Below are positions 50,401 to 53,400 of a DNA stretch of 64,000 bases, piece after piece. Made by a program: the position numbers. Position 1 is the first letter of the stretch; each line of letters begins with the position of its first letter. Source of the DNA: an uncultured Clostridia bacterium (GTDB lineage Bacteria; Bacillota; Clostridia; Christensenellales; CAG-138); NCBI GenBank assembly GCA_944336475.1, contig CALVLD010000001.1:65524-129523 (forward strand). The letters run 5' to 3'.

Positions 50401-53400
50401 AACATCCTCACGCCCGATACTGCGGATGAGATCCATATCCTTTACCAGGGCAGGGTCATTGCGCCACTCCTCAAGCAGCTCTTCCCACTGCGCTTCACGA
50501 ATATCCGGAGCAATTATCTCTGAAATGATGCCATAGATATCCTGCATGGGTATATCGCCTGACGGCTCATCGCCGGCGTAGTAGATGATGTGATAGCTTC
50601 CACCGTCAACGAACACCTCGGAATACTCATTGAGACTGAGCTTTCTGAACTCATCCTTAATGCCTGTGCTCCAGTCATCCGAGCTGTCATGTACAAGACT
50701 GATAAGCTGCCCCTTCTGCTGGAATGCTTCGCAGCCGTTGGTATCATCGCTGCCGATTATCAGTTCATCCTCTGTGTACTCGAGCATGACCTCGGCAAAT
50801 GGCTGGCCTGCTTCCAGTGCGGCATATGCACGGTTTATCTTCTCAAGCGCAGACTGGGAGTATGTCTCAAACTCCGTATCGGTCTCGGTCTTAAGCGCAG
50901 TGTACTCTGCCAATATCTCCGCTATGCGCTCTGCGTTGGCATCGGTACCGTTGAGGGCGTCCTCAAATGCAAGTGAGCCAAATTCAGCCCTGAGCTGCTC
51001 CATCTGATCCAGTTTGGAATAGTACTCCTCCGAAAGCTCCCCCTCCGGCGAGACCACTATATGCATCATCCTGGAGTACCCTTCGGGAACGTATGTTACG
51101 GGGTAAATATCGTCTTTGAGGCCATAGTAGAGCTCAAAACTTTCCTGGTCGGCCTTGTATCTTCCCGGGCTGGCCGTGTAATTTGTCTTATCGCTATCAT
51201 ACTCAGTATCGTACCAGTCGGTAATATCCGAGCTTTCGGGTACAAACTCCTGCGTGACAAGCTCCTTATACTCCTGGATTATGAAAGCACGACGCTTTTC
51301 TGCGCTGTACTCCTCCTTATACTCGTCCCATGACATCTCAACGCCAGTGTAATACTTTGAAACGCTGTTGATAAACGCGGTGAACCGATCTGCAACGGAT
51401 ATGCTTGGATCGTTCTCGTAGTCCTCCTCCGCCATGCTGTAGTACTCAGTATATAGATCATTGATCTCCTTTTCGGTTTCCTCCGCAAGCTGCTGCTCCT
51501 GCTCCTCGCTGAGAGTGAACCCGTTAAGCTCTGCCTGGTAAAGAACGACAATGTCGTCTGCGAGGGACTGAATGAGCCAATCCTGAAAGCTCTCAAGCAG
51601 CGTGACGCTCCCAAGAGGATCAAGGCCGTTTGCCTGCATGTACGGCAGATATGAGTCATACAACGCCTTATAAACGGCGTATGTTATCGTATAGTTACCC
51701 ATTGTGAGCACAGGGCGAGTGCCGTCAACTTCGGCAACATCATCCTTGTTATCGCCGCATCCGCTAAGGCCAAGGCTAAACAGCACCAGTGCGCTGACGA
51801 GTATACACATCAGTTTCTTCATAGTTATCTCCTTGCTATTACGGACAGGTTGTCCGTCGACTTCCACCACATTATACAGCCAAACTCACCCTATTGCAAT
51901 GTTCAGTCAACATTAAAATTGGATTTGGTCAATGTTCACAATTTGTTTTCAGATTTGCCCCCTAATATAATCATGCAGATACTTGCCCTTTTCCGCTTTG
52001 CTGGGTATAATATAGCTTGAGTGATTATGTACAACTAAGGAGTGTTTACTTTTGAAGCGTTTATTTGTTTCGGTTGTGTCCTGCGCACTTGCAGTTTTGA
52101 GCCTTGTGCTTCTCCTTCCGTTTGGCGTAATGGCCGATAATGCGCCGTCTCAGCATGTTACCATTTCGGTTACCCCCTCGGAAATGACCGAAGCGGGCGT
52201 TGCCACGGTCTCCATAACGATTAGGAACGATAACGCCGCATCCGTCAATCCTACCACTGCCGAGCCCTCAGAGTCGCCTGCGCCCGTTATTCCCGAGAGC
52301 GCCTATACCAATATCACCATATCAAACGAGTACGGCGTATCCTTCCCGACTGCTGGTGCGGTGATACCGGCAGGTTCGAGCCAGACTTTTTCCGGCACAT
52401 TGGAAGTCACTACGAGTATGATCGGTGCAACGCTCACATTTACGGTAAGTTGGGTGACGAATGGCTCCACCGTCACCGAGGTGGTCACGACTCGCGTGTT
52501 GCTTGCTGACACCGCATATCTTGCCGTCACTCGTACTGCGACCCCTGCCACCGCCGCACCCGGCACGGTGGTCAGTTTCACCTACACATTCACGAACACT
52601 GGCTCTAAAAAGCTCAATGAGATAAAGCTCATCGATCGATATGTGTACGGTTCGTCATCTCGTCCCATGCTCGACCCCTTCTCACTGGATCCAGGCCAGG
52701 AGTATGTGTTTGAATATTCGCTCACAATGGGCTCCTCCACGATCGTGTCCAACCCTATCGTTACTTTCATTGCCGATGGAAGCGAGACCGAACTCACCGT
52801 CACTGTACCCAGCCTCACGATCGGCCTCATAAATGTCCAGGTCACAAAGGATGTTGTGCGTGGTGAGTCCACTCCCGAGGGAGTGCTGTTCACGCTGTAC
52901 ATCACCAACAACGGCAACCAGAAGCTCACCGGGCTCAATGTGCAGGATGAGCTCGGCAATTCCTTCGTAGACAGCACTTTCTCTCTTGCCGTCGGTGAAA
53001 CTCGAGTGATCGAGTGCATGATTCCCAACCCAATATCCGTGCGTCATGTCGTGTTCAAGATCACCGGATATGACAATCAGGGAACACGCTTCACCGACAA
53101 TACGGAGAGCTTTGAGGTACGGCCATATATCGACACCTCCCTGCTGAGCCTCTCGTTCACTCCGGCGCTCGTCTCCCCCATAAATTCAGAGGGATATGTC
53201 GGTATGGAGTTTACCATTCACAACACCGGCTCTTTGAGCTATTATGACCTTTCCCTGTATGAAAGCCAGGTCAATGCTCCCATACAGCGCCTGGATGAAA
53301 TTGCCCCCGGAGAGGTCAAGGTGCTTGCCTGTGATGTGCTTGCAGGGGTCAACAAGAATCTTCTGTTCAGCCTCGGCGCATACGACTCATCCGGGAATGA

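Follow-up and report, generated by a model that had tools for sequence, protein, structure and literature searches.

A conserved direct-repeat box upstream of a surface-protein gene in a Clostridia lineage, a candidate site for an htrA-linked WalR/MtrA-like response regulator

The window analysed here is a 64,000-nucleotide stretch of contig CALVLD010000001.1 from an uncultured Clostridia bacterium of the order Christensenellales. Two of its intergenic regions carry the same exact 14-mer, TCACAATTTGTTTT, which has no further exact copy in the window. One copy (20509-20522) lies between a two-component operon and the divergent htrA gene. The other (51936-51949) lies in the region studied here, 51823-52051, between the divergent genes of a lipoprotein and of a surface protein with a CLIPPER_2 domain, and ends 56 nt before the TATAAT of the plus-strand surface promoter. 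An initial annotation took this 51.9-kb region for a second copy of the whole set of elements found at 20.4 kb, and proposed that the response regulator beside htrA binds both regions and governs htrA, a PrsA-like lipoprotein gene and the surface-protein gene as one quality-control regulon. The locus thus raises the question of which shared elements are real, which gene they serve and which protein might bind them.

The 14-mer of the 51.9-kb region is part of a 19-bp box composed of two 8-mers, which also holds the second copy of a direct repeat, CAATGTTCA, that starts at 51897 and again at 51930, 33 nt apart. Orthologous lipoprotein/surface-gene regions were gathered from public assemblies and the box was recognised in five lineages, that of the window and those of loci L005, L008, L160 and L180. 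Four of the five (lipoproteins 52-65% identical to that of the window) were aligned with MAFFT. The alignment has only four invariant islands: the -35 of the lipoprotein promoter (TGCAA), the box as TGTT.ACAA...GTT, and the -35 (CTTGC.C) and -10 (GG.TATAAT) of the surface promoter. The box keeps 11 invariant alignment positions (T54-T57, A59-A62, G66-T68) while its flanks have diverged beyond recognition. The fifth species, L180, has the same 19-mer as L008, GTTAACAAAAAGTTTACAA, between unrelated flanks. In all five species the two 8-mers are 11 bp apart, the direct-repeat arrangement of sites for OmpR/PhoB-family regulators, and they agree with each other at 7 of 8 positions in L008, L180 and L160. 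Judged from this footprint, the box is very probably a functional cis-element of a subclade, so that the placing of the 14-mer within a genuine cis-element was borne out.

A consensus scan of the region gives exactly two promoters, TTGCAA-17-TATAAT on the minus strand and TTGCCC-17-TATAAT on the plus strand. From the box centre to the -10 of the surface promoter the distance is 62.5, 62.5, 73.5, 61.5 and 73.5 nt in the five species, which keeps the box on one helical face relative to that promoter; the two spacing classes, 29-30 and 41 nt, are retained even though the sequence in between differs. The gap between the box and the lipoprotein -35 varies (34, 50, 35, 25 and 34 nt). Most probably the box serves the surface-protein promoter as an upstream activator site, and the surface-protein gene is most likely the regulated gene. 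Inclusion of the PrsA-like gene in the regulon, as proposed at the outset, is not favoured by this contrast between a conserved and a variable spacing. An alternative promoter overlapping the box, TTGTTT-17-TATAAT (51943-51971), was rejected since it is not conserved in L008, L160 and L180. A search for RNA elements in 51500-52400 returned zero Rfam matches at E up to 1.

The features listed by the initial annotation (the minus-strand promoter, the plus-strand TATAAT, an inverted repeat, the 9-mer GTCAACATT, the direct repeat and the 14-mer) are all present where it had placed them. The duplicated set nevertheless shrinks to one 14-mer, because the 9-mer, found at 51906-51914 and 20459-20467, is at chance level (about 46% of random region pairs should have a 9-mer in common) and because the ATGTTCA seen at 20.4 kb corresponds to the -35 of the regulator promoter (TTGAAC) read on the opposite strand. 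Neither the inverted repeat nor the first copy of CAATGTTCA is conserved in the alignment of orthologous regions. Only the 14-mer stands out, and only to a moderate degree when the space searched is allowed for. Simulations that keep the base composition give a P of about 0.001 for a common word of 14 nt or more in the pre-chosen pair of regions, in keeping with the earlier statement that such a match is very unlikely by chance; that statement is weakened by the whole-window search space, which raises P to about 0.08 for one or more 14-mers common to any two of the 24 intergenic regions (5.1 kb in total, matches on either strand). A dispersed-repeat scan of the 14-mer through the 64-kb window and 180 loci found exact copies only in loci of this same organism, from four independent assemblies.

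The response regulator noticed beside htrA is of the OmpR family, with a receiver and a Trans_reg_C domain, and of WalR/MtrA type. Its best NCBIfam match is YycF/WalR (NF040534; 250.8 bits against a cut-off of 340), with MtrA next, and its best match among solved structures is MtrA of M. tuberculosis (2gwr, E = 2e-57); its recognition helix is TRAVDTQIKRIRQKL. The kinase has the domain order HAMP-PAS-HisKA-HATPase and reaches 265.3 bits with the WalK model (NF033092), whose cut-off is 725; one homologue (P0062) is labelled WalK by NCBI. The layout of htrA divergent from the regulator-kinase pair is kept in five related loci (L091, L092, L094, L177 and L179), and a radical-SAM gene and a divergent SpoIIE-like gene follow the kinase in the window and its relatives alike. 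Among the matches listed by a search of the contigs with patterns from a kinase alignment, which were the universal HisKA motifs, only kinases of at most 47% identity were found and none adjoins htrA.

The htrA promoters of this clade have boxes of their own. In six of six species the end of an 18-bp proximal box lies 33 nt from the downstream TATAAT of htrA. No -35 was found when one was sought in the htrA promoter of the window, where CAT recurs in 11-bp phase at 20531, 20542, 20553 and 20564 (P about 0.018). It is this missing -35, together with 11-bp-phased units, that makes the htrA promoter look OmpR-type and activator-dependent. Six such units can be read between 20505 and 20582 (TTTGTCA, TTGTTTT, TTTGACA, ATATACA, TTCAGCA and ATTTCCA). 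The 20.5-kb copy of the 14-mer belongs to a distal box, 20505-20522, which ranks 1 of 127,966 window positions with a profile built from the proximal htrA boxes of the five relatives and 2 in the window with a profile of another element of their spacers, GNCACAAWTT. Since both profiles derive from relatives only, these ranks make the 20.5-kb copy a credible regulator site. The link between the 51.9-kb box and the two-component system is only moderately supported, mainly by the 14-mer and further by a common TCACAAT core and the 11-bp direct-repeat geometry.

In the explanation favoured here, tentatively and with a confidence a little short of even, the box would be bound by a response-regulator dimer of the OmpR/PhoB family and would serve to activate the surface-protein gene. 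It is centred about 74 nt 5' of the inferred transcription start of that gene (about 85 nt in two relatives), a position from which the regulator, once bound, would touch RNA polymerase along a single helical face and switch on the TTGCCC-17-TATAAT promoter. The likeliest binder would be the WalR/MtrA-like protein encoded at 19684-20385, which also appears to act on the phased boxes before htrA, one of them with the same 14-mer. That the htrA-linked regulator binds the 51.9-kb box is possible, with the chances somewhat below even. Direct co-activation of htrA and of the CLIPPER_2 gene by a WalRK/MtrAB-like two-component system, through GTTMACAA-N3-GTT direct repeats, appears plausible and is more doubtful still.

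Three known systems invite comparison. The WalR (YycF) site of Bacillota is TGTWAH-N5-TGTWAH (PMC9210968). The box is likewise a direct repeat of 11-bp period 5' of a gene for an exported or cell-envelope protein, and can be read as TGTTAA-N5-TGTTTT in L005, TGTTAA-N5-CGTTAA in L160 and TGTTCA-N5-TGTTTT in the window, matching 10 of 12 consensus positions in the window and 9-11 of 12 in the relatives by our own count (1-3 mismatches). The L180 box differs in lacking the leading T (CGTTAA). YycF as the best NCBIfam match of the regulator and the WalK-like layout of the kinase add to the likeness, and in B. subtilis the HtrA-family gene htrC belongs to the wal operon (PMC8767453). A WalRK system proper is nevertheless not what is found here, because both proteins score far under the equivalog cut-offs and accessory genes of walHIJ type are missing, the kinase being followed by a radical-SAM gene instead. 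Moreover, wal operons are reportedly not autoregulated (PMC9210968), whereas conserved boxes adjoin the regulator promoter in the present locus.

MtrA of C. glutamicum binds (A/G)TAACAATttn(A/G)TAACAAT, an 8-bp direct repeat with a 3-bp linker, and activates from sites 5' of the -35 while it represses from sites near the -10 (PMC3353115). The 8+3+8 geometry is that of the box. By eye, the actinobacterial consensus is matched at 7 of 8 positions by GTCACAAT (20508) and at 6 of 8 by both TTCACAAT (51935) and TTAACAAA of the relatives, a linker TTG is akin to ttn, and MtrA is the top solved structure for the regulator. In contrast to the actinobacterial system, which has the lpqB lipoprotein gene downstream, there is no lpqB here, and in the window conservation of the second unit is poor.

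CssRS is the secretion-stress system that controls htrA and htrB in B. subtilis (PMC8767453, PMC3498368), and the quality-control regulon of the initial annotation was modelled on it. As in CssRS, an OmpR-family two-component system adjoins, and apparently controls, the gene of an HtrA-like membrane-anchored protease; htrA next to the operon, with predicted regulator boxes in its promoter, is found in the window and in five loci. The kinase differs: its cytoplasmic PAS domain and larger extracellular part are WalK-like and not CssS-like. A CssR-specific family model is absent among the best 25 NCBIfam matches listed, and the 51.9-kb target, a surface-protein gene, codes for neither a protease nor a chaperone. 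The htrA and htrB promoters of B. subtilis carry tandem TTTTCACA octamers. The TTTTCAC/GTTCAC units that the htrA promoters of the present clade have 33 nt 5' of the -10 resemble these octamers. The two-component system is like the three in its manner of working and is classed here only as OmpR-family and WalR/MtrA-like, CssRS being unsupported by the kinase architecture.

Several observations weigh against the box being an activator site read by the htrA-linked regulator. The resemblance to WalR sites can carry little weight, as it is of a quality that occurs at chance frequency: the WalR consensus with up to two mismatches is found 65 times in the window where 66 are expected. Profiles of the relatives' htrA boxes, which pick out the distal box at 20.5 kb, place the 51.9-kb box only 612th to 3156th, the GNCACAAWTT (element-3) profile gives it a P of about 0.16, and profiles of the relatives' 51.9-kb-type boxes show no enrichment in the relatives' htrA regions. 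The proposal that one regulator binds both regions is credible for the 20.5-kb copy; the 51.9-kb box is not singled out by these profiles. The invariant GTT of the box is TGT in the 20.5-kb copy. L005 and L091 are probably one organism, since they come from the same sample, and yet the box region of the former and the htrA region of the latter have just one 10-mer in common, on opposite strands. Within the box, the identity between the two 8-mers is just 5 of 8 in the window, as in L005. The motif was also sought in orthologous loci, as the initial annotation had advised; it is present in L005, L008, L160 and L180 and was not found in L011, L095, L097, L098, L099 and a human-gut group, though these keep the gene pair. 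Finally, in L005, L008 and L160 the left part of the box, TTGTTAACAA, is palindromic over its full 10 bp, which would suit a dimeric helix-turn-helix protein as well.

The main rival idea takes the box for a real, conserved operator that serves another transcription factor, its 14-mer identity with the htrA region being coincidental; this is a serious reading, on balance rather improbable. The factor could be a dimeric helix-turn-helix protein acting on TTGTTAACAA or on AAC-N5-GTT, or the second response regulator of those relatives that have another regulator-kinase pair in tandem with the first. The uniformly negative cross-set profile tests between htrA regions and box, made with the relatives' proximal htrA boxes, a generic half-site, the GNCACAAWTT element and the relatives' 51.9-kb-type boxes, the palindrome and the window-wide chance of about 8% for a shared 14-mer all agree with it. 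The palindrome is however broken in L180 (CCGTTAACAA), where the 8+3+8 direct repeat is kept, and the window copy, ATGTTCACAA, is non-palindromic. A 10-bp palindrome alone cannot account for the invariant downstream GTT, 11 bp from the first, and among htrA-type boxes of the window it is the 20.5-kb copy of the 14-mer that scores highest. The consensus of the Rex operator is TTGTTAA-N4-TTAACAA, which needs a 4-nt spacer. A Rex-type operator was rejected, as the half-sites overlap in TTGTTAACAA without any spacer and the window copy reads ATGTTCACAA; the consensuses of CodY, Spo0A, CcpA and Rex match poorly or with wrong spacing.

The initial proposal, in which the box serves the divergent lipoprotein promoter or the two promoters together, is unlikely. 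In the window the centre of the box is near-equidistant from the two inferred starts (simple counting gives roughly 76 and 77 nt), and in four of the five species the gap to the lipoprotein -35 (34, 35, 25 and 34 nt) is near one helical phase; the 50 nt of L005 are about half a turn off. In L005, AAATGTTCAC on the lipoprotein strand, just 5' of the -35, equals a half-site of the L091 htrA box, but a 10-mer in common is near chance (about 0.14-0.3, a rough estimate and not computed). The box is oriented with the surface gene, as the htrA boxes are with htrA, and in L009, which has no surface gene, the lipoprotein promoter is kept and the box was not found. Very unlikely is a box without any regulatory function, the 14-mer being a chance product of AT-rich promoter DNA and the similarity among relatives residual ancestry. 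The window-wide P of about 0.08 and the many lineages that have the same gene pair without the box would fit such a view; it is the footprint, with 11 invariant positions amid diverged flanks and GTTAACAAAAAGTTTACAA identical in L008 and L180, and the spacing, conserved across intervening sequences that differ, that make pure chance improbable. An activator site for the surface-protein gene, bound by the WalR/MtrA-like regulator, remains the tentatively preferred reading. The features on which these arguments draw are collected in Table 1.

Table 1. Features of the two intergenic regions and their surroundings (window positions, unless a locus is named).
Feature	Position	Strand	Description
Two-component operon	17811-20385	-	regulator 19684-20385, kinase 17811-19721
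Promoter of the operon	20442-20414	-	TTGAAC-17-TATAAT
Distal box	20505-20522	+	TTTGTCACAATTTGTTTT; regulator/htrA intergenic region; carries the other 14-mer copy
Proximal htrA box, window	20526-20543	+	TTTGACATCAAATATACA; ends 33 nt 5' of TATAAT (20577-20582)
Proximal htrA box, L091			TTTGACAAAAAATGTTCA
Proximal htrA box, L092			AATGTCAAAATATTTTCA
Proximal htrA box, L094			TTTGTGCCTTCTGTTTCA
Proximal htrA box, L177			CGTGTCATATTTTTTTCA
Proximal htrA box, L179			TATGCCCCGCTTTTTTCA
htrA gene	20637-21773	+	HtrA/DegP-family serine protease; divergent from the two-component operon
Lipoprotein gene	50374-51822	-	482 amino acids; signal peptide with LSGC lipobox
Lipoprotein promoter	51871-51899	-	TTGCAA (51899-51894), 17-nt spacer, TATAAT (51876-51871)
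Inverted repeat	51898-51914		AATGTT-CAGTC-AACATT; contains GTCAACATT, overlaps first CAATGTTCA copy
Conserved box	51934-51952	+	GTTCACAA-TTT-GTTTTCAG; 19 bp, two GTT-initiated 8-mers 11 bp apart
AT-rich block	51963-51971	+	TAATATAAT; 5' of surface -35
Surface-protein promoter	51983-52011	+	TTGCCC (51983-51988), 17-nt spacer, TATAAT (52006-52011)
Surface-protein gene	52052-53680	+	542 amino acids; signal peptide, DUF7507/CLIPPER_2 domain, C-terminal membrane anchor
Conserved box, window			TGTTCACAATTTGTTTTCAG
Conserved box, L005			TGTTAACAAATTGTTTTCAG (GTTAACAA-ATT-GTTTTCAG)
Conserved box, L008			TGTTAACAAAAAGTTTACAA (GTTAACAA-AAA-GTTTACAA)
Conserved box, L160			TGTTAACAAAACGTTAAAAA (GTTAACAA-AAC-GTTAAAAA)
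Conserved box, L180			CGTTAACAAAAAGTTTACAA (GTTAACAA-AAA-GTTTACAA)
Second regulator-kinase pair, L091	7077-9624
Second regulator-kinase pair, L092	7029-9567
Second regulator-kinase pair, L012	5862-8294
Second regulator-kinase pair, L031	3881-6295

The lipoprotein gene is the first of a string of genes (lipoprotein, S4-domain, ispDF), and is divergent from the surface-protein gene in most relatives. The N-terminus of its product, MKKLMCILVSALVLFSLGLSGC, has a lipobox whose cysteine, C22, is invariant across 36 homologues. A Pfam search with the window protein gave no significant match, SurA_N_2 being marginal (E = 0.008) and a rotamase match absent. SurA_N_2 is recognised in 27 of the 36 family members and Rotamase_2 in 25, and against the PDB the family profile matches parvulins weakly (E about 0.007). 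The lipoprotein belongs to the SurA-N/parvulin (PrsA/SurA-like) family; with the window protein itself marginal, the label PrsA-like given to it earlier is valid at family level only. The CLIPPER_2 domain of the surface protein belongs to a family of cell-surface domains for which intramolecular isopeptide bonds are predicted (PMC12617251).

The AT-rich block upstream of the surface -35 is kept in relatives as TAATATAAT or AATATTATA; it looks like an UP element and may function as one. A AAAATATTTT-type block, which also resembles an UP element, lies about 20-30 nt 5' of the surface -35 in the box-less loci L011, L095, L097, L098 and L099, and the same AAAATATTTTC is found inside the htrA box of L092. 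The surface promoters of L095, L097, L099 and L160 have CATAAT-N3-GGTTATAAT, that is, a second -10-like CATAAT, which the window does not have. Elsewhere in the window, TGTTCACAATTCCTCAT at 27510-27526 is a near-copy of the first half of the box; it was judged a chance match because it coincides with the stop codon where two minus-strand genes meet. A short gene for a GntR-family (YtrA-like) regulator at about 41.2-41.6 kb of the window (L001 20179-20613) stands ahead of an ABC-transporter operon, about 10 kb away from the lipoprotein gene, and the two could form an envelope-stress module.

Between the regulator -35 and the htrA boxes, two further elements, TTGWCA/GTCAAYAT and GNCACAAWTT, are present in six of six species. 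In the window they are found at 20457-20487. Their spacing is 8 or 18 nt, a difference of one helical turn, and in L177 the pair is a tandem repeat, GCCACGAT-TAA-GTCACAAA. These elements may be an autoregulatory site. Decamers of ACACATTCGG type recur in unrelated spacers: ACACATTCGG itself in L092 (regulator/htrA) and in L100 and L102 (lipoprotein/surface), ACACATTCCG in the regulator/htrA spacer of L179 and ACACAATTCGG in the window (20481-20491). In several relatives a second tandem regulator-kinase pair is inserted between the first kinase and the radical-SAM gene, while the window, L094, L177 and L179 have a single pair. With the first regulator of L012 and L031 the window regulator shares 72-73% identity, and with the second 58%.

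The box is an ordinary kind of bacterial cis-element and involves no new mechanism, whichever protein binds it. Should its link to the htrA-linked regulator fail, what is left would be a well-footprinted operator for another binder, ahead of a surface-protein gene that is itself conserved. Systems of the WalRK type attract attention as targets for antibiotics, and only in a few model species have their regulons been well defined. If the favoured explanation is true, it would provide a DNA motif for a WalR-like regulator from beyond Bacilli and Actinobacteria, together with the first members of its regulon, giving this uncharacterised WalR/MtrA-like system a testable motif and two direct targets, htrA and the CLIPPER_2 gene. 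The display of a covalently stabilised surface protein would then be tied to extracytoplasmic protein quality control in a gut and rumen lineage of Clostridia.

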